Shown here in pieces: positions 2,820 to 41,387 of a stretch of DNA of 64,000 nt. Every line of letters starts with the position of its first letter. The first letter of the stretch is position 1. The stretch is from NCBI RefSeq assembly GCF_003019035.1, contig NZ_CP027447.1; one strand, given 5' to 3'. The position numbers and the translations under genes were made by a program. The notes beneath the pieces were generated by a model. The model did not search any database, was not told the origin of the DNA, and saw only the letters and a program-made list of their open reading frames with translations. This DNA is from Escherichia coli (GTDB lineage: Bacteria > Pseudomonadota > Gammaproteobacteria > Enterobacterales > Enterobacteriaceae).

Positions 2820-3581
2820 ATGGTTTCATCATTCACATCTGCCCCACGCAGCGGTTTTTACTATTTTGCGCAAGGCTGGAAGCTCGTCTCGCAACCTGGG
2901 ATTCGGCGTTTCGTTATTTTACCGCTGCTGGTCAATATTTTGTTGATGGGGGGCGCATTCTGGTGGCTATTTACGCAGCTCGATGTCTGGATCCCGACGC
3001 TCATGAGTTATGTTCCGGACTGGTTACAATGGCTGAGCTATCTGTTGTGGCCTCTGGCTGTCATCTCTGTGCTGTTAGTGTTTGGCTATTTCTTCTCAAC
3101 GATTGCTAACTGGATTGCCGCTCCGTTCAATGGTTTATTGGCTGAACAACTGGAAGCACGATTGACTGGCGCTACACCGCCAGATACCGGGATTTTCGGT
3201 ATCATGAAAGATGTGCCGCGAATCATGAAACGCGAATGGCAAAAATTTGCCTGGTATCTGCCGCGCGCAATTGTATTGCTAATTCTTTACTTCATCCCTG
3301 GTATTGGGCAAACCGTCGCGCCGGTACTATGGTTCCTGTTTAGCGCCTGGATGTTAGCCATCCAGTATTGCGATTACCCCTTCGATAACCACAAAGTGCC
3401 GTTTAAAGAGATGCGCACCGCCCTGCGCACACGCAAAATCACCAATATGCAGTTTGGTGCTTTAACCAGCCTGTTTACGATGATCCCGTTGCTTAATCTG
3501 TTCATCATGCCCGTTGCCGTTTGTGGTGCGACGGCGATGTGGGTCGATTGCTATCGCGATAAACACGCGATGTGGCGGTAA
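2820..3581 (+). CDS. cysZ: Sulfate transporter CysZ
   Basis: 253-aa [34 protein letters not shown]..., polytopic membrane protein, position upstream of cysK. Confidence 0.9.
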
Positions 3582-3765
3582 CAATCTACCGGTTATTTTG
3601 TAAACCGCTTGTGTGAAACAGGGGTGGCTTATGCCGCCCCTTATTCCATCTTGCATGTCATTATTTCCCTTCTGCATATAGATATGCTAAATCCTTACTT
3701 CCGCATATTCTCTGAGCGGGTATGCTACCTGTTGTATCCCAATTTCATACAGTTAAGGACAGGCC

Positions 3766-4737
3766 ATGAGTAAGATTTTTGAAGATAACTCGCTGACTAT
3801 CGGTCACACGCCGCTGGTTCGCCTGAATCGCATCGGTAACGGACGCATTCTGGCGAAGGTGGAATCTCGTAACCCCAGCTTCAGCGTTAAGTGCCGTATC
3901 GGTGCCAACATGATTTGGGATGCCGAAAAGCGCGGCGTGCTGAAACCAGGCGTTGAACTGGTTGAACCAACCAGCGGTAATACCGGGATTGCACTGGCCT
4001 ATGTCGCTGCCGCTCGCGGTTACAAACTTACCCTGACCATGCCAGAAACCATGAGTATTGAACGCCGCAAGCTGCTGAAAGCGTTAGGTGCAAACCTGGT
4101 GCTGACCGAAGGTGCTAAAGGCATGAAAGGCGCAATCCAAAAAGCAGAAGAAATTGTCGCCAGCAATCCAGAGAAATACCTGCTGCTGCAACAATTCAGC
4201 AATCCGGCAAACCCTGAAATTCACGAAAAAACCACCGGTCCGGAGATCTGGGAAGATACCGACGGTCAGGTTGATGTATTTATTGCTGGCGTTGGGACTG
4301 GCGGTACGCTGACTGGCGTCAGCCGCTACATTAAAGGCACCAAAGGCAAGACCGATCTTATCTCTGTCGCCGTTGAGCCAACCGATTCTCCAGTTATCGC
4401 CCAGGCGCTGGCAGGTGAAGAGATTAAACCTGGCCCGCATAAAATTCAGGGTATTGGCGCTGGTTTTATCCCGGCTAACCTCGATCTCAAGCTGGTCGAC
4501 AAAGTCATTGGCATCACCAATGAAGAAGCCATTTCTACCGCACGTCGTCTGATGGAAGAAGAAGGTATTCTTGCTGGTATCTCTTCTGGAGCAGCTGTTG
4601 CCGCGGCGTTGAAACTACAAGAAGATGAAAGCTTTACCAACAAGAATATTGTGGTTATTCTACCATCATCGGGTGAGCGTTATTTAAGCACCGCATTGTT
4701 TGCCGATCTCTTCACTGAGAAAGAACTGCAACAGTAA
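3766..4737 (+). CDS. cysK: Cysteine synthase A (O-acetylserine sulfhydrylase A)
   Basis: 323-aa [27 protein letters not shown]...; PLP-fold motifs SVKCRIG and GNTGIALA. Confidence 0.95.
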
Positions 4738-4750
4738 TGCCAGCTTGTTA

Positions 4751-4778
4751 AAAATGCGTAAAAAAGCACCTTTTCAGG
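4751..4778 (+). terminator. Intrinsic terminator after cysK
   Basis: aaaaagcacc-ttttca-ggtgcttttt hairpin followed by T-run, 14 bp after the cysK stop. Confidence 0.6.
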
Positions 4779-5120
4779 TGCTTTTTTGTGGCCTGCTTCA
4801 AACTTTCGCCCCTCCTGGCATTGATTCAGCCTGTCGGAACTGGTATTTAACCAGACTAATTATTTTGATGCGCGAAATTAATCGTTACAGGAAAAGCCAA
4901 AGCTGAATCGATTTTATGATTTGGTTCAATTCTTCCTTTAGCGGCATAATGTTTAATGACGTACGAAACGTCAGCGGTCAACACCCGCCAGCAATGGACT
5001 GTATTGCGCTCTTCGTGCGTCGCGTCTGTTAAAAACTGGCGCTAACAATACAGGCTAAAGTCGAACCGCCAGGCTAGACTTTAGTTCCACAACACTAAAC
5101 CTATAAGTTGGGGAAATACA

Positions 5121-5378
5121 ATGTTCCAGCAAGAAGTTACCATTACCGCTCCGAACGGTCTGCACACCCGCCCTGCTGCCCAGTTTGTAAAAGAAGCTAA
5201 GGGCTTCACTTCTGAAATTACTGTGACTTCCAACGGCAAAAGCGCCAGCGCGAAAAGCCTGTTTAAACTGCAGACTCTGGGCCTGACTCAAGGTACCGTT
5301 GTGACTATCTCCGCAGAAGGCGAAGACGAGCAGAAAGCGGTTGAACATCTGGTTAAACTGATGGCGGAACTCGAGTAA
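5121..5378 (+). CDS. ptsH: Phosphocarrier protein HPr
   Basis: 85-aa [32 protein letters not shown]... (active-site His15 context). Confidence 0.95.
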
Positions 5379-5422
5379 TTTCCCGGGTTCTTTTAAAAAT
5401 CAGTCACAAGTAAGGTAGGGTT

Positions 5423-7150
5423 ATGATTTCAGGCATTTTAGCATCCCCGGGTATCGCTTTCGGTAAAGCTCTGCTTCTGAAAGAAGACGAAATTGTCATT
5501 GACCGGAAAAAAATTTCTGCCGACCAGGTTGATCAGGAAGTTGAACGTTTTCTGAGCGGTCGTGCCAAGGCATCAGCCCAGCTGGAAACGATCAAAACGA
5601 AAGCTGGTGAAACGTTCGGTGAAGAAAAAGAAGCCATCTTTGAAGGGCATATTATGCTGCTCGAAGATGAGGAGCTGGAGCAGGAAATCATAGCCCTGAT
5701 TAAAGATAAGCACATGACAGCTGACGCAGCTGCTCATGAAGTTATCGAAGGTCAGGCTTCTGCCCTGGAAGAGCTGGATGATGAATACCTGAAAGAACGT
5801 GCGGCTGACGTACGTGATATCGGTAAGCGCCTGCTGCGCAACATCCTGGGCCTGAAGATTATCGACCTGAGCGCCATTCAGGATGAAGTCATTCTGGTTG
5901 CCGCTGACCTGACGCCGTCCGAAACCGCACAGCTGAACCTGAAGAAGGTGCTGGGTTTCATCACCGACGCGGGTGGCCGTACTTCCCACACCTCTATCAT
6001 GGCGCGTTCTCTGGAACTGCCTGCTATCGTGGGTACCGGTAGCGTCACCTCTCAGGTGAAAAATGACGACTATCTGATTCTGGATGCCGTAAATAATCAG
6101 GTTTACGTCAATCCAACCAACGAAGTTATTGATAAAATGCGCGCTGTTCAGGAGCAAGTGGCTTCTGAAAAAGCAGAGCTTGCTAAACTGAAAGATCTGC
6201 CAGCTATTACGCTGGACGGTCACCAGGTAGAAGTGTGCGCTAACATTGGTACGGTTCGTGACGTTGAAGGTGCAGAGCGTAACGGCGCTGAAGGCGTTGG
6301 TCTGTATCGTACTGAGTTCCTGTTCATGGACCGCGACGCGCTGCCCACTGAAGAAGAACAGTTTGCTGCTTACAAAGCAGTGGCTGAAGCGTGTGGCTCG
6401 CAGGCGGTTATCGTTCGTACCATGGACATCGGCGGCGACAAAGAGCTGCCATACATGAACTTCCCGAAAGAAGAGAACCCGTTCCTCGGCTGGCGCGCTA
6501 TCCGTATCGCAATGGATCGTAAAGAGATCCTGCGCGATCAGCTCCGCGCTATCCTGCGTGCCTCGGCTTTCGGTAAATTGCGCATTATGTTCCCGATGAT
6601 CATCTCTGTTGAAGAAGTGCGTGCACTGCGCAAAGAGATCGAAATCTACAAACAGGAACTGCGCGACGAAGGTAAAGCGTTTGACGAGTCAATTGAAATC
6701 GGCGTAATGGTGGAAACACCGGCTGCCGCAACAATTGCACGTCATTTAGCCAAAGAAGTTGATTTCTTTAGTATCGGCACCAATGATTTAACGCAGTACA
6801 CTCTGGCAGTTGACCGTGGTAATGATATGATTTCACACCTTTACCAGCCAATGTCACCGTCCGTGCTGAACTTGATCAAGCAAGTTATTGATGCTTCTCA
6901 TGCTGAAGGCAAATGGACTGGCATGTGTGGTGAGCTTGCTGGCGATGAACGTGCTACACTTCTGTTGCTGGGGATGGGTCTGGACGAATTCTCTATGAGC
7001 GCCATTTCTATCCCGCGCATTAAGAAGATTATCCGTAACACGAACTTCGAAGATGCGAAGGTGTTAGCAGAGCAGGCTCTTGCTCAACCGACAACGGACG
7101 AGTTAATGACGCTGGTTAACAAGTTCATTGAAGAAAAAACAATCTGCTAA
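5423..7150 (+). CDS. ptsI: PTS enzyme I (phosphoenolpyruvate-protein phosphotransferase)
   Basis: 575-aa [34 protein letters not shown]...; GGRTSHTSI phosphohistidine motif. Confidence 0.95.
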
Positions 7151-8594: not shown

Positions 8595-8607
8595 TTAATT
8601 TTTTCTC

Positions 8608-9067
<460 letters not shown>

Positions 9068-9069
9068 TC

Positions 9070-9981
9070 TTAAATCCCCGCCCCCTGGCTAAAATGCTCT
9101 TCCCCAAACACCCCGGTAGAAAGGTAGCGATCGCCACGATCGCAGATGATCGCCACCACCACCGCGCCAGGGTTAGCTTTTGCCACTCGCAGTGCACCAG
9201 CAACCGCGCCGCCGGAGCTAACGCCACAGAAAATCCCTTCCCGCGCCGCCAGTTCGCGCATAGTGTTTTCCGCATCGCGCTGATGAATATCCAGCACCTC
9301 ATCCACCAGAGAAGCGTTGAAAATTCCCGGCAGATATTCCGCAGGCCAGCGGCGAATGCCTGGAATACTGCTGCCTTCTTCCGGCTGCAGGCCAACAATC
9401 GTCACCGGTTTGGATTGTTCGCGCATAAAGCGTGACACGCCGGTGATAGTGCCGGTTGTTCCCATGCTGGAGACAAAATGGGTAATGCGCCCGCCAGTCT
9501 GCTGCCAGATTTCCGGCCCGGTGGTGGTGTAATGGGCGAAGGGATTATCAGGATTATTGAACTGATCGAGCAGCTTTCCTTCACCACGATTGGCCATCTC
9601 CAGCGCCAGATCGCGCGCACCTTCCATGCCCTGCTCTTTGGTGACCAGAATCAGTTCCGCACCGTAGGCACGCATTGCCGCACGGCGTTCCTGGCTCATG
9701 TTGTCGGGCATCAGCAATTTCATGCGATAGCCTTTAAGCGCGGCAATCATTGCCAGCGCAATGCCGGTGTTACCACTGGTGGCTTCGATCAACACATCAC
9801 CCGGTTTAATCTCGCCGCGCTTTTCCGCCTCGACAATCATCGAAAGCGCTGCACGGTCTTTTACCGATCCCGCCGGGTTATTGCCTTCCAGTTTTAACCA
9901 CACTTCACTGCCGTTATCCGGCCCCATTCGCTGCAACTTCACCAGAGGCGTATTGCCAATTGTTTGTTCTAATGTACTCAC
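9070..9981 (-). CDS. cysM: Cysteine synthase B (O-acetylserine sulfhydrylase B)
   Basis: ORF track 9070..10059(-) trimmed to GTG start (V)STLEQTIGNTPLVKLQRMGPDNGSEVWLKLEGNNPAGSVKDR; 303 aa. Confidence 0.9.
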   Translation of the reverse strand: MSTLEQTIGNTPLVKLQRMGPDNGSEVWLKLEGNNPAGSVKDRAALSMIVEAEKRGEIKPGDVLIEATSGNTGIALAMIAALKGYRMKLLMPDNMSQERRAAMRAYGAELILVTKEQGMEGARDLALEMANRGEGKLLDQFNNPDNPFAHYTTTGPEIWQQTGGRITHFVSSMGTTGTITGVSRFMREQSKPVTIVGLQPEEGSSIPGIRRWPAEYLPGIFNASLVDEVLDIHQRDAENTMRELAAREGIFCGVSSGGAVAGALRVAKANPGAVVVAIICDRGDRYLSTGVFGEEHFSQGAGI

Positions 9982-10004
9982 GATCTCTGTCCATACGTGG
10001 TGTT

Positions 10005-10040
10005 GCCTGATGCGACGCTTGCGCGTCTTATCAGGCCTAC
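10005..10040. repeat. REP (repetitive extragenic palindromic) element in cysA-cysM spacer
   Basis: gcctgatgcgacgcttgcgcgtcttatcaggcctac, classical REP palindrome. Confidence 0.7.
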
Positions 10041-10114
10041 AGGTTACAAACCTTGCCATTAAAAAGCCCGGATCGCGGGAAGCGCCTCCGGGCGTTTAAC
10101 ATTCACTCAACCTA

Positions 10115-24191: not shown

Positions 24192-24196
24192 CTCCC

Positions 24197-25807: not shown

Positions 25808-26467
25808 TTACGCACGCTGGATTGGATTACGCGCGATTTCCAGCACTGCATCGGTAAAGGCGTTACAGGCTGCTTTACACGCGGCCTGGCTACCGGTTAA
25901 AAATGCTGCCGAGTAGTTGGTTTCAGACGGTGGCGGGACATAGGTCACCAGCTGCACGTCGGCAGATTTCAACGCTGCATCAATGCCGTAGGTCGCTTCC
26001 AGCGGCGGTGCCACCAGATACGCCATCGGATCGCCAGGCGTGATCCCGGCGGTTGATGAGAGATAAGAACCGGTACGCGAAACGACATGTGCCAGGAAGG
26101 CTGTATTTTCTGCGTCATTAGCCCACTGGAAAGCAGCGCCATTTTCAATATGCGCAACCATCGCATCCAGACCAGCACGCACTTCCGCCGGGTTTGGCCC
26201 ACCCAGCATAATCAGCACTTCACCGGCAGTCGGTGACGGGCCGTGTGCGGCTCCCGCATACAGCGAGCGGCCATACACCACTTCCACCATCGCCTGCTTG
26301 GTCGCTTCGTCAGCCGCAATGTAGGTGACGTCATCTGAATCAGCAGAAATCAGCCCGAGGCTACGAATATGCGGCGGCAATTTCAGTTCACGTGCAAATT
26401 CGGCGTTAACGGAGGCAATCACCCGCATGGCGGTTACCGACGGTCGAATCAAATCTAAAGCTGGCAT
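25808..26467 (-). CDS. eutL: BMC shell protein EutL (tandem BMC domain)
   Basis: 219-aa [44 protein letters not shown]... Confidence 0.9.
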
Positions 26468-26476
26468 GATGCCTCC

Positions 26477-27364
26477 TTATCGGGTCATGTTGATGCCGGA
26501 TGCTTTCTGCTCCAGCATACGTTTCGCCAAATCCACAATGACGGCTGCGGCTTCAACCGGCGGCGTGCCGCCCTGGTGAATGTTAGAGATACAGGTGCGA
26601 TCGGCCTCAACGGTGGTTGCCATACGCGGCGAGTAAACGGCGTAGCAGGAGAGGCTTTCTGACTGCCCCAACCCCGGACGTTCGCCCACCAGCAGGATCA
26701 CCACTTTCGCGCCGAGGATCTCACCGATCTGATCTTCAATCTTCACGCGACCATAACGAACAAAGAATGGCGTGCCGACTTTCAGCCCGGCCTGTTTCAG
26801 GCCCGCCATCAGCGGCGGCAGGATCTCTTCGTAGTTCACGGTGATCGCATCAGTTGACAGGCCATCAGAAATAACGACCTGTACGTCCGGATTAGCAACA
26901 CACTGTGCTTTCAGCGCTTCAACAGCTTCAGCACACAGGCGGCGGCCCATATCCGGACGAGTCAGGTAGAGATTTTTGTCGCTGATTTCGGAGCGGACTT
27001 CCAGCAAGCCCTGCGCTTTCACCCACTCTTCCGGTACTTCTTTCAGAACGGTATCTTTCGAACGAGAGTGATCGGCCAGGAAACGCAGCAACGCCTGGGT
27101 GCGCGGACGCGGACCGGCACGACCGGTACAAACGCGGGCCACGGTGCTGCGACGCAGTTCTGTTAACACATCCGCACGATGTGGGTTTTCAACACCAATC
27201 CACGCTTTTGCTTCCGCAGAACCTAAATCCAGCGCGCAGCTTTCCGAGGTCACCGGTGCCGCACAGGTGGTGGTGGCGCACTTTGCTTCTGACGGCGCGG
27301 GGGCCGCTTGTCCCATTGACGCCATCACGCTGCGTACAATTTCTTCAATCTGTTTTTGATCCAT
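26477..27364 (-). CDS. eutC: Ethanolamine ammonia-lyase small subunit
   Basis: 295-aa [22 protein letters not shown]... Confidence 0.9.
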
Positions 27365-27384
27365 GATGTGTTATCTCCGCGTCA

Positions 27385-28746
27385 TCAGAAGAACAGTGAC
27401 GGATCGCCCGCCCGTTTGGTCAGGCGACCGTTTGCCATAATGCCCATGCTTTCCAGCCAGCGTTCAAACTCCGGTGACGGGCGCAGATTCAGTAACTGAC
27501 GCACAGTGGCAGTGTCGTGGAATGCGGTGGTCTGATAGTTGAGCATGATGTCATCGCCCAGCGGCATCCCCATGATGTAGTTGCAGCCTGCGGTGGCGAG
27601 CAGGATCATCAGGTTTTCGTTGAGGTTCTGGTCAGCGTCAGCGTGGTTGGTGTAGCAGCAGTCACAGCCCATAGAGATGCCACTCAGCTTGCCCATAAAG
27701 TGATCTTCTAAGCCCGCACGGATAATCTGGCGGTCGTTGTAGAGATACTCCGGCCCAATAAAGCCGACCACGGTGTTGACGATAAACGGATCGTAATGAC
27801 GCGCCAGCCCGTAGTTACGCGCTTCCATCGTCACCTGGTCTGCGCCGAAGTTAGCGCCAGCAGACAGCGCCGAACCTTGTCCGGTTTCGAAGTAGAGGCA
27901 GTTTTCCCCGGCGATACGGTTAAACTCTGCACCCACTGCGCGCGCTTCGTCGAGCATCGCCAGCTCCACGCCAAACTCTTTCAGCCCTTTTTCGCTGCCG
28001 CAAATACTCTGGAAAATCAGCCCGCCCGGTGCGCCGCGACGAATCGCTTCGATCTGGGTGGTGACGTGCGCCAGTACGCAGCCCTGAGTTGGGATGTTGA
28101 ATTTGTCGATCACGCCATAGATGGTATCCAACACGCGGCTTAAGTTTTCCACGTCGTCAGTCACCGGGTTAACGCCGATCACCGCATCGCCCACCCCGAA
28201 GGAAAGCCCTTCGTAGATTTGCGCGGCGATACTTTGCACATCGTCACGGGTATCGTTTGGCTGCAAGCGGGCGCTAAAGGTGCCCGGAATACCGATGGTG
28301 GTATTGGCCTTTTTGATCACCGGCATTTTCTTCGCGCCGTAGATCAGGTCCGCGTTGGAGCAAATCTTCGCTACCGCCGCTACCACTTCCGAGGTCAGCC
28401 CTTTGCGGGTAAAGGCAATGTCGTCCACGCTGGTTTCATCGCTCAGCACATACTCACGCAGTTCGCTGATGCTCCAGTTTTTAATCTGGTTGTAGGCCGT
28501 TTCGTTAACGTCGTCCTGAATCAGCCGCGTCACGCAGTCATCTTCATAGGCAATCACCGGATTATTGCGGATGTCCGCTACGGTCATTTCCGACAACACC
28601 TGCTTTGCCGCCACGCGCTCCTGTGAGCTTGCCGCAGCAACGCCCGCCAGCACATCCCCCGAACGCAGTTCGTTGGCTTTAGCCAGCACCTCTTTTACAT
28701 CCTTAAACTGATATACATTGCCGAACAATGTGGTCTTTAGTTTCAT
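27385..28746 (-). CDS. eutB: Ethanolamine ammonia-lyase large subunit
   Basis: 453-aa ORF MKLKTTLFGNVYQFKDVKEVLAKANELRSGDVLAGVAAASSQERVAAKQV... Confidence 0.95.
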   Translation of the reverse strand: MKLKTTLFGNVYQFKDVKEVLAKANELRSGDVLAGVAAASSQERVAAKQVLSEMTVADIRNNPVIAYEDDCVTRLIQDDVNETAYNQIKNWSISELREYVLSDETSVDDIAFTRKGLTSEVVAAVAKICSNADLIYGAKKMPVIKKANTTIGIPGTFSARLQPNDTRDDVQSIAAQIYEGLSFGVGDAVIGVNPVTDDVENLSRVLDTIYGVIDKFNIPTQGCVLAHVTTQIEAIRRGAPGGLIFQSICGSEKGLKEFGVELAMLDEARAVGAEFNRIAGENCLYFETGQGSALSAGANFGADQVTMEARNYGLARHYDPFIVNTVVGFIGPEYLYNDRQIIRAGLEDHFMGKLSGISMGCDCCYTNHADADQNLNENLMILLATAGCNYIMGMPLGDDIMLNYQTTAFHDTATVRQLLNLRPSPEFERWLESMGIMANGRLTKRAGDPSLFF

Positions 28747-28757
28747 AAGTCGTTCCC

Positions 28758-30161
28758 TCAGGAAGGAAATGCGAGTGATTTCACCGTCACCGGCACAACC
28801 GATCCGCCAAAAAGAGGCGTACCAATGTCGATATAGTCCCCCGCGCGGACAATCACTTCGTCAATGACTGCCAACGGGAGTTGTTGTAGCTGTGGGCGCA
28901 ACAACATGCCCAGAGCTTTACCAAAGTCCTGCCCGGCCACCACCAGCAGGGGATGCGGATTCGGAAAACGCGCGACGAAATCGACCAACGCGTTGATGAC
29001 CGTCAGTACCGCGGCGTAACGCACAGGCAGCGAGGCGGGAAGCGCCAGCACGTACGCGTCAGTTTTAGGATCAAGATCCAGCTGAATCAGCGCCTGTTGC
29101 CAGGCACTCACCAGATCCTTTTCATCAATTGGGATCGCCACCGGCAAGTTGCGCAGCGGCAGTTGTACGCCCTCCAGCCAGATTGTGCTGCCAGAGAGCG
29201 AAAGGGTATGTGCACCCGCGCCAATCACCGTGGCGCGCACGGTTTGCGCCGGAAACTGCACGTTCATCTCACGCAGGCGCGGATGGTCATGCAGCGCCGT
29301 TGCCAGAAGCGGGCCAATATCGGCAAAACAGAACGGGTCGGCGGGCTGGTGGCGATAACATTCGCCCACGCCGCCAGAAAGCGTAATGATTTCGGGCGTA
29401 ACACCTGCGGGCAGCAAACCGGTTTGCATTAATGCCTGCGCGAGCGGCGAAAGCGTTCCGTCAATCACTTCGACAATCAGCTCTGCCATCCGCCGGGTAA
29501 CCTGCACCAGCTGCGCGCCGGTCAGCGAACGGGCGTCGGTGCCTGCGCCGAAGCACTCATCCACAATCATCTGCCCCGGTTTATGAGCGTAAACCACGCG
29601 CCCCTGGCTGTCGGTTTCCAGCAGGCGACCGCCGACATTGAGGCAGGCGGTGCCGCTGATTTTTCCGGCATCGAACAGGGCGTAGTTCGCGGTGCCACCG
29701 CCGATATCGATATTCAGGACCCGACACAGCCGTTGTTCAGAAAGGGTTTGCGCCCCGGCACCGTGACCGGCGATCACGGATTCGAGATGCGGTCCAGCGC
29801 TGGCGACGACAAAATCGCCCAGCGACTGGGAGAGCGTCATCACCGCCGGGCGAGCGTTGCGGGTTTTCGCGCTTTCACCGGTGATGATGATGGCACCAGA
29901 ATCAACGCTTTCCGGCGCAATGCCCGCAGCCTGATATTGCTCGAGGATTAAGGTTTTCAGTTCCGCTTCTTTTAAACCACCCTGTTTATCGACAGGGGTA
30001 AAGAACACCGGGCTTTGCCAGCTAATTTCGCGTTTGATGAATTCGTAGCGCGGCACCTGCGACACCGCCGCACGGTTAACCAGCTCCAGGTGGGAGAAAA
30101 TCACCTGGGTGGTGGTGGTGCCGATATCGATACCGACGCTCAGTAGCTGGCGAGTGTTCAC
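28758..30161 (-). CDS. eutA: Ethanolamine ammonia-lyase reactivase EutA
   Basis: 467-aa ORF MNTRQLLSVGIDIGTTTTQVIFSHL...; starts 11 bp after eutB with no intervening prophage. Confidence 0.9.
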   Translation of the reverse strand: MNTRQLLSVGIDIGTTTTQVIFSHLELVNRAAVSQVPRYEFIKREISWQSPVFFTPVDKQGGLKEAELKTLILEQYQAAGIAPESVDSGAIIITGESAKTRNARPAVMTLSQSLGDFVVASAGPHLESVIAGHGAGAQTLSEQRLCRVLNIDIGGGTANYALFDAGKISGTACLNVGGRLLETDSQGRVVYAHKPGQMIVDECFGAGTDARSLTGAQLVQVTRRMAELIVEVIDGTLSPLAQALMQTGLLPAGVTPEIITLSGGVGECYRHQPADPFCFADIGPLLATALHDHPRLREMNVQFPAQTVRATVIGAGAHTLSLSGSTIWLEGVQLPLRNLPVAIPIDEKDLVSAWQQALIQLDLDPKTDAYVLALPASLPVRYAAVLTVINALVDFVARFPNPHPLLVVAGQDFGKALGMLLRPQLQQLPLAVIDEVIVRAGDYIDIGTPLFGGSVVPVTVKSLAFPS

Positions 30162-39400: not shown

Positions 39401-40471
39401 ATGAAAATTCACTACCTTGTCACCACCCTCGAAGCGGGAGGCGCTGAATTTGCGATTCCTGATATTGTGACTACTCTGCAAGACCTTGGTCATGAGGTGA
39501 AAATTTATGTCTGTGAACCCCGCGATATGGGAGCAGCGCCTCGTCTGGAAGCCGCTGGATTATCCTGGTGTTTATTATCAAATCGGCGGCGTTCTGAACC
39601 CATGCTTGTAGCTGCTTATCTGGCAAAAATCATTCACGACAAACCCGATCTCATCTGGACTTCGTTAAGTTGGGGGACTCGTATTGGGCAATGGGTCGGC
39701 CGGCTTATGGGCATTCCTGTTATCAGTTTTAAACATAGCGCCAGCGTAAAACCAGCGACCTGGCGTATGCGCAACATGTCTCGTTTATGGATAGGAGATT
39801 CTGAAACCGTAGCTCAATACCTGCATGAAACCATGTTGATCCCGAAGCAACAAGTGCTGTGCTGGCCCTTTTTTCAGGCGAATCCGCAAGCTGCCCAAGC
39901 GCAAAACTGGGACGGGAAATCAGTTTTACAATTAGGCTCTGTTGGACGCCTGCATGAAGTTAAAAATTACGCTGGATTAATTACAGCACTCGCTTCGTTT
40001 GTAGATAAAAACCCGCAATTGCGCTCGCGAATCCGATTAACCATTCTCGGTGAAGGGCCTGAACAGGAAGCATTGCAAAAAACCATAACGCAACACGCGT
40101 TGGAGGATGTGGTTTGTTTAGCGGGTTTTTCTGCGGATGTCGAAAATTTTCTTGCCGGATTACATGTCTACATCCAGACCTCCCGCTACGAAGGGATGTG
40201 CCTCGCTGCACACGAAGCCATGAATGCAGGGCTTGCAATCATCACGACTCCTGTAGGCGAACTTAAAGAATCGGTAATAGATGGTCATACTGGATATACG
40301 CTTAATGGCGAGCTAACGCCAGCGCTGGAGGGTGTGCTTAACCGTATTTTAAGTGAACCCGAAGAATTAGAACGCTATGGGCAAAATGTGCGGCAGTATG
40401 TATTAGCGAAGTTCAGCCATGAAAATTTTGTCCAGTCTGCAATCAACATCGTCAATAGACTTATTCACTGA
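39401..40471 (+). CDS. Glycosyltransferase family 1 (GT-B fold, GT4-like) protein; accessory gene
   Basis: 356-aa ORF; C-terminal region RYEGMCLAAHEAMNAGLAIITTPVGELKESVIDGHTGY resembles the retaining GT1/GT4 sugar-donor binding motif; to my recollection K-12 has no gene between eutS and maeB. Confidence 0.7.
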   Translation: MKIHYLVTTLEAGGAEFAIPDIVTTLQDLGHEVKIYVCEPRDMGAAPRLEAAGLSWCLLSNRRRSEPMLVAAYLAKIIHDKPDLIWTSLSWGTRIGQWVGRLMGIPVISFKHSASVKPATWRMRNMSRLWIGDSETVAQYLHETMLIPKQQVLCWPFFQANPQAAQAQNWDGKSVLQLGSVGRLHEVKNYAGLITALASFVDKNPQLRSRIRLTILGEGPEQEALQKTITQHALEDVVCLAGFSADVENFLAGLHVYIQTSRYEGMCLAAHEAMNAGLAIITTPVGELKESVIDGHTGYTLNGELTPALEGVLNRILSEPEELERYGQNVRQYVLAKFSHENFVQSAINIVNRLIH

Positions 40472-40484
40472 ACAAGGCAGAAAA

Positions 40485-41387
40485 ATGAATTGCTATACCA
40501 CCGATCTTTGGCAGATAGGCATTGTTCAGGCCCCCATACAGCACATTGTTGCTTCTGGCAGTTTGGATGGCTTCAGGATTAAATGGATTACCCCGGATAA
40601 ATCACTCACTTTTCTTGCCGATCCTTTCGGTCTGTGGAAAAAAGGGGTTCTCTATCTTTTCGCGGAATCCTACGATTATCGGACTCGTCGTGGCGATATT
40701 ATCGCTTATAAGCTCAATGCTGACCTGGACGTCATTGAGCAACGAACTGTGCTACAAGAACCCTGGCATCTTTCTTATCCTTTTGTGTTTGAAGCCGATA
40801 ACGAAATCTGGATGTTACCTGAAGGATATAAATCAGGTACGCTAACGTTGTACCGCGCTATAGAGTTTCCCTGGCGATGGGAAAAGGTGCCAGATTTTTC
40901 ATTCCCTTGCGCTGCCATTGATGCCACCCCCTTTTACGCACAAGGAAAATGGTGGATGTTTTATACTCCCCCACTACCAAAGGCAGCCAGGACGGATACG
41001 TTAATGCTCGCTCATGCCCCCCATTTTATGGGGCCATGGGAAAACGTCCTGCAAACTGCCGCGCACAGGAATAAAAGCGGCGCGCGTATGGGCGGAACAC
41101 CATTTGATCATGATGGGCAAATTTTCTTACCAACACAAGATTGCAGCCGAACCTACGGTGGCGCATTGCAGATGCTGACACTAGACCCACAACGTTTATT
41201 AACTCCAGAATTTGCTGCCTCTGTGCGCCTGGAAGTGCCTGCAAGTGCCGCGCCTTTTATTGCTGGCATGCATACGCTTTCTGGCGTTGGCGACGTAACA
41301 TTCATTGATGCCAAGCGACACCTTAAAGGTTCGCCTCAGCGATTATGGGTGGATTTGCAGCGGCGGATACAGAAGTGGATCAGCTAA
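40485..41387 (+). CDS. Hypothetical protein, possibly beta-propeller glycoside-hydrolase-like; co-transcribed with the upstream glycosyltransferase
   Basis: ORF track 40419..41387 trimmed to ATG 40485 (MNCYTTDLWQIGIV...), 13 bp after the GT stop with aagg RBS; DPFG..W and aromatic-rich repeats (WHLSYPFVFEADNEIWMLPEGY, KWWMFYTPP); family assignment unverified. Confidence 0.55.
   Translation: MNCYTTDLWQIGIVQAPIQHIVASGSLDGFRIKWITPDKSLTFLADPFGLWKKGVLYLFAESYDYRTRRGDIIAYKLNADLDVIEQRTVLQEPWHLSYPFVFEADNEIWMLPEGYKSGTLTLYRAIEFPWRWEKVPDFSFPCAAIDATPFYAQGKWWMFYTPPLPKAARTDTLMLAHAPHFMGPWENVLQTAAHRNKSGARMGGTPFDHDGQIFLPTQDCSRTYGGALQMLTLDPQRLLTPEFAASVRLEVPASAAPFIAGMHTLSGVGDVTFIDAKRHLKGSPQRLWVDLQRRIQKWIS

Follow-up and report, generated by a model that had tools for sequence, protein, structure and literature searches.

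The yfeS-less yfeK–cysM junction with a 2-bp spacer is the usual allele in Escherichia coli

The convergent genes yfeK and cysM abut tail to tail in a stretch of 64,000 nucleotides of Escherichia coli contig NZ_CP027447.1, referred to here as the window, and K-12 has a further gene, yfeS, between them. The locus raises the question of whether the window strain lost DNA at this site or K-12 gained it, and of how two transcripts can end where their genes have almost no space between them. The junction was read directly, compared with K-12-type genomes and strain B, searched for in complete E. coli genomes, and followed into related species and genera.

The junction in the window and in K-12

In the window, yfeK (8699–9067, + strand) encodes a 122-aa DUF5329 protein with a signal-peptide-like N-terminus. 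RefSeq names it a YfeK family protein, and it matches Pfam PF17263 (E 4.9e-31) and, over positions 1–122 of 122, NCBIfam NF007646. The final gene of cysPUWAM, cysM (9070–9981, − strand), encodes cysteine synthase B with 303 aa, as in RefSeq, and a Pfam PALP match (E 1.2e-75). By direct reading, the yfeK stop is TAA at 9065–9067, the cysM stop is TTA at 9070–9072, and the whole intergenic spacer is TC at 9068–9069. The sequence across the junction runs GTG CCT GCG CAA TAA TC TTA AAT CCC. The coordinates of both genes agree between the list of open reading frames and the RefSeq annotation of SCU-301 (NZ_CP051751), whose reverse complement has 4 mismatches to the window in 64,000 nt. A first-pass annotation had placed the two stop codons 2 bp apart, and its coordinates are exact.

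Eight convergent gene pairs are annotated by RefSeq in the 64-kb window, with spacers of 2, 5, 42, 47, 57, 80, 98, and 102 bp. A 2-bp convergent spacer is at the short end of this range without being unique in the window. The second near-abutting pair is eutR (− strand) and hemF (+ strand), with 5 bp between the open reading frames (24192–24196). The stretch 8600–10100 is a rare haplotype, to which seven records are at least 99% identical, the next 97.8%, and K-12 94.9%. The SNP pattern of cysM is a mosaic between strains.

The K-12-type genomes compared were an O16:H48 strain, DH1, JM109, and MC4100. Their order is yfeK (124 aa), 32 bp, yfeS (735 nt, 244 aa), a 188-bp REP-containing spacer, and cysM; the locus numbers of yfeK, yfeS, and cysM in K-12 are b2419–b2421. 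Two REP elements precede cysM, and the extra K-12 stretch also matches Rfam ES036. YfeS has an N-terminal WGR domain (Pfam PF05406, E 6e-18), and its C-terminal 173 aa match no Pfam family, even at E ≤ 1. The first-pass placing of a yfeS of about 244 aa between yfeK and cysM in K-12 was thus right, as was the statement that the window lacks it: searched by tblastn with K-12 YfeS over its full 64 kb, the window had no match at E ≤ 1e-5, and a pattern search was likewise empty.

The K-12 locus resembles that of the window in the order and orientation of crr, pdxK, yfeK, cysM, and cysA, and in the sigma-E-type yfeK promoter region. It differs in the loss of a hairpin at the 3′ end of yfeK and in the DNA at the junction itself. 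A precise indel had been proposed there; the size difference is real, but the exchange is not perfectly clean, with 8 bp of the window (CAATAATC) standing against 967 bp in K-12. The net difference by alignment is 959 bp for K-12 and 975 bp for strain B, which has the K-12 layout plus 16 bp. In strain B, a complete hairpin, TTTGTCGGCAG-CAACAA-CTGCCGACAAA, directly follows yfeS (1742–1945 of the strain B locus). The corresponding K-12 hairpin is truncated, with 16 bp missing, including most of its 3′ arm (2742–2929 of the K-12 locus). YfeK is 97% identical between the window and K-12, and its tails differ, as the first-pass annotation had suspected, reading …TVPAQ before the stop in the window and …TVPAEGN in K-12.

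Distribution of the two alleles and outgroup states

The 2-bp junction is a feature neither of chance nor of assembly. Of 5426 complete E. coli genomes, 4038 match without a break a 101-nt query with the junction at its centre. yfeS was found in 1387, nearly always as a single copy (median of 1 place per genome), and the two sets together account for 5425 of the 5426. E. coli splits cleanly into two alleles at this junction, and the window has the majority allele. The yfeS-positive count is swollen by laboratory derivatives of K-12 and B, so the natural frequency of yfeS is below 26%. The junction string GCGCAATAATCTTAAAT, made up of GCGCAATAA-TC-TTAAATCC and present in the window, is identical in 11 of 11 yfeS-less E. 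coli sequences read with a 2-bp spacer. These are the window, SCU-301, SCPM-O-B-8794, and eight genomes sampled down the similarity ranking, among them an ST131 strain, an O157-size cattle strain, and ATCC 8739; gene coordinates in the eight are the same. The expectation that yfeS belongs at this junction is therefore not borne out: most genomes (74%) are without it, apparently in the ancestral state, and the extra DNA is K-12's.

The abutting stops are thus a correct but ordinary observation. They represent the usual allele of the species and are annotated alike in thousands of RefSeq genomes. K-12 is not the species reference state here, and yfeS is an accessory passenger absent from about three-quarters of finished E. 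coli genomes.

The sole variant read was E. coli FCI29, which has a 3-bp TCC spacer (TAA-TCC-TTA, around 100–112 of the locus), as in the right-hand repeat of the K-12 cassette. FCI55, from the same project, also has a longer span, and the difference may be either a real variant or a sequencing error. The 50-kb plasmid pZ0117EC0005-3 (NZ_CP098226) carries an unannotated YfeS homologue with 70% identity (5001–5702 of the extracted stretch), and its host strain also has a chromosomal yfeS. A plasmid vehicle for yfeS was considered and set aside; this homologue on one E. coli plasmid is the only close match, and it is uninformative.

Outgroups were collected by a YfeK search with one genome per species, followed by tblastn of neighbouring genes and direct reading. 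Pseudocitrobacter faecalis has the same 2-bp junction as the window, and the spacer is 1 bp in the Enterobacteriaceae MAG UBA5654. In Escherichia sp. E1V33, yfeK and cysM overlap tail to tail by 12 nt with both stops counted (1417–1428 of the locus), and YfeK ends in …TVPSNP. Citrobacter amalonaticus, Superficieibacter sp., and Entomohabitans have spacers of about 30–65 bp without yfeS. A yfeS cassette lies at the identical site and with the same boundaries on the Pseudocitrobacter MAG contig CAJYVI010000176.1 (3367–4319 of the locus).

Unrelated DNA occupies the junction in two further species. Escherichia albertii NBRC 107761 has an insert of 1819 bp with 34.5% GC (3331–5149 of the locus). 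It contains two minus-strand open reading frames, one of 280 aa with no family and one of 175 aa, lipoprotein-like with a weak DKNYY match. A clean hairpin directly follows yfeK in this genome, and YfeK ends in …TVELKNK. Superficieibacter electus has an insert of about 530–541 bp (3374–3896 of the locus) with a DUF4440/SnoaL-like gene on the yfeK strand, whose TAA stop shares 2 nt with the cysM stop inside TTAA. None of YfeS, YfeK, and the two cargo proteins of E. albertii matched a PADLOC defence-system model.

Two other places in the window also concern accessory DNA. Two overlapping glycosyltransferase-type genes (GT4, PF00534; GINT1_N, PF24793) lie between eutS and maeB at 39401–41387 on the + strand. 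This 2.1-kb stretch has 36–48% GC against about 55% in its flanks and is present in 83 of 5426 complete E. coli genomes, which makes it much rarer than the yfeS polymorphism. eutA and eutB are adjacent in the window (about 26110–29500); in K-12 the CPZ-55 prophage presumably lies between them.

Origin of the difference

The window very probably holds the standard empty-site allele, itself probably ancestral, and the K-12 and B lineages acquired a cassette of about 960 bp horizontally. That the ancestral junction was compact and that the cassette spread horizontally is read from the outgroup states, from the identity of yfeS across genera, and from its low GC content. The probable polarity rests on outgroup states and sequence comparison. 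YfeS of the Pseudocitrobacter MAG contig is 94% identical in protein to that of K-12. At the DNA level, yfeS is 92–100% identical between the two (mostly at least 96%), yfeK 60–90%, and cysM about 76–98%. This greater likeness of yfeS than of its flanks indicates recent transfer across genera. GC content is 39% in yfeS, 46% in yfeK, and 56% in cysM.

The boundaries of the cassette are well defined. In K-12, in strain B, and on the Pseudocitrobacter MAG contig, each end coincides exactly with one copy of an 8-bp direct repeat, ATTAATCC. These three share a cassette with the WGR open reading frame, bracketing repeats, and REPs before cysM, all absent from the window. The left copy includes the yfeK stop codon and the right copy abuts the cysM stop. 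The right copy resembles AATAATC of the window and, judged by this resemblance, looks like a relic of an old yfeK stop and spacer. A low-GC cassette made up of yfeS and its ribosome-binding site, together with a hairpin and two REPs, would have arrived by horizontal transfer and replaced the last codon of yfeK, its stop codon, and the spacer. Such a replacement of the yfeK end would account for PAEGN in K-12 where the window has PAQ. The window allele, GCGCAATAATC followed by TTA, differs from the pre-insertion sequence implied by the K-12 junctions (GCGGAAGGAAATTAATCC...ATTAATCC followed by TTA), so the original insertion probably took place in another lineage, which was not found.

Opposite polarity, with yfeS ancestral at the site, lost in the lineage of the window strain, and the 2-bp junction left as a deletion scar, is very unlikely and already largely refuted. 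The direct repeat around the K-12 cassette is the type of substrate that yields deletions, and a difference of 2.7% between the K-12 and strain B alleles of yfeS implies that the cassette did not enter E. coli very recently. However, for 74% of genomes across phylogroups, and for another genus besides, to share one junction, yfeS would have to have been lost either once, very early, or many times in the same way. The window junction is also 7 nt shorter than the product of a repeat-mediated deletion and differs from it. That product, GCGGAAGGAAATTAATCC followed by TTAAAT, is in none of the 5426 E. coli genomes, where the best full-length match (93%) is an ordinary empty allele, and a degenerate exact pattern for it had 0 matches in a metagenome collection. 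The foreign base composition of yfeS and its greater similarity between genera than that of its flanks likewise speak against an ancestral position. An assembly or sequencing artefact in the window is already refuted by the same sequence in thousands of independently finished genomes and in the near-identical SCU-301.

It is also unlikely that the cassette is a non-autonomous, site-targeting mobile element with an 8-bp target-site duplication, for which the window would show the unoccupied attachment site. The cassette has no terminal inverted repeats, recombinase, or transposase, and yfeS is its sole open reading frame (K-12 locus). An exact 8-bp repeat with the same boundaries in two genera is what a target-site duplication would leave, but chance alone accounts for seven further exact 8-mer repeats in this 1.1 kb. 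The unrelated cargo at this junction in E. albertii (1.8 kb) and S. electus (0.5 kb) would suit a targeted site, but neither insert has flanking repeats, and yfeS is essentially single-copy in E. coli. The variable DNA is bounded by conserved coding sequences, as expected for homologous recombination via core genes.

The favoured reading is that the cassette first inserted in that other lineage and was later imported by homologous recombination via the core genes on either side, because the cassette has neither terminal inverted repeats nor a recombinase and other 8-mer repeats arise by chance; a site-specific mobile element is less likely. In its yfeK flank, K-12 is 99.4% identical to a yfeS-less strain. 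Import of foreign flanks together with the cassette into K-12 was considered, and the flanking SNPs, which are mosaic but of typical E. coli type, gave no donor signal.

Transcript ends and comparison with known systems

Upstream of yfeK, a sigma-E-type promoter-like site, GAAACTT-N16-TCAAA, was matched by a regular expression at 8638–8665 (+ strand), and its promoter function is predicted from this match. The sigma-E consensus is GGAACTT-N16-TCAAA. The cassette has its own ribosome-binding site and no obvious promoter. Its position behind the sigma-E yfeK promoter would make yfeS a sigma-E regulon gene by position. In K-12, yfeK and yfeS form one operon under a sigma-24 promoter (PMC11502571), and both genes are counted in the K-12 sigma-E regulon (PMC2685091). 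Strains without yfeS, such as that of the window, have a sigma-E regulon without this member.

The 2 bp between the genes leave no intergenic space, so both transcripts must terminate within the gene that faces them. Scanning for consensus promoters and terminators gave no site at the junction, in line with the first-pass annotation, which had seen no terminator structure between the genes. An inverted repeat, ATTGCGCAG-N16-CTGCGCAAT, occupies the last 34 nt of yfeK (9032–9065) and forms a hairpin with a 9-bp stem in both transcripts. Folding of this 39-nt segment gives −14.0 kcal/mol (z = −3.04), none of 200 shuffles is as stable, and the − strand RNA also folds. The G+C-rich hairpin of an intrinsic terminator is thus present at the yfeK 3′ end, and a U tract is absent on either side of it, the + strand running on into AAUCUUAAAUCCCC and the − strand into UAACGCAUGUAAAAAAGG. 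In the K-12 allele, the 3′ arm is altered and the hairpin is lost on folding. The divergent E. coli strain SCPM-O-B-8794 has one mismatch in the hairpin without a compensatory change, giving no covariation support. The hairpin may be incidental to the coding sequence.

Past the yfeK stop, the + strand RNA antisense to the cysM 3′ end (9068–9270) is C-rich and G-poor, a candidate Rho loading region by composition. Its first 100 nt after yfeK have 40% C versus 19% G, and 78-nt windows starting at 9068–9268 have 31–42% C versus 19–26% G. The − strand downstream of cysM is balanced, with 26% C and 22% G. The most likely routes by which these transcripts would end are Rho-dependent termination once the ribosome has been released, collision of polymerases at a point set by the hairpin, or both.

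A broader functional reading would make the abutting junction a bidirectional stop, acting by collision or by a hairpin, that couples the sigma-E-driven transcript of yfeK to the CysB-controlled transcript of cysPUWAM. Arrival of the K-12 cassette would have abolished this hairpin and put a hairpin and REP insulators of its own in its place, and the site would be a recurrent landing place for small unrelated cargo (yfeS in E. coli and Pseudocitrobacter, the two-gene 1.8-kb insert of E. albertii, and the DUF4440 gene of Superficieibacter). Taken whole, this reading is unlikely. If it were true, envelope stress would lead to RNA antisense to the 3′ end of cysM, and vice versa. The points of mild interest at this locus are only the spread of the yfeS cassette across genera to the same site and the contrast between alleles in transcript-end architecture. 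The two alleles form a natural pair for the study of convergent transcript ends, one with no intergenic DNA and the other with a hairpin and a REP-containing spacer.

The nearest REP-like palindrome in the window lies in the cysM–cysA spacer (10002–10037). It is a sub-threshold Rfam naRNA4 match on both strands and the sole Rfam match, with no known RNA family at the junction itself. REPs are reported to differ in location from strain to strain and, where they separate convergent genes, to go with higher expression of both neighbours (Harris et al., bioRxiv 10.64898/2026.03.23.713779). Compared with that arrangement, the K-12 allele has REPs between yfeS and cysM, and the window has none at the junction. 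Wang, Watters, Ju, and Liu report bidirectional terminators in which the place where polymerases collide head-on between gene boundaries is set by a stem-loop (Wang et al., bioRxiv 10.1101/2022.10.23.513370). The window resembles these in that its two genes converge on a stem-loop lying exactly at their boundary and predicted for both nascent RNAs. It differs in that its hairpin lacks flanking U/A tracts, lies inside a coding sequence, and was not detected by the consensus terminator scan. The closest general parallel to the polymorphism itself is with the small strain-specific islets found between core genes in the E. coli pan-genome. Like these, yfeS is a lone low-GC accessory gene, carried by a minority of strains at a fixed site and shared across genera; its site is unusual only in its extreme compactness when empty.
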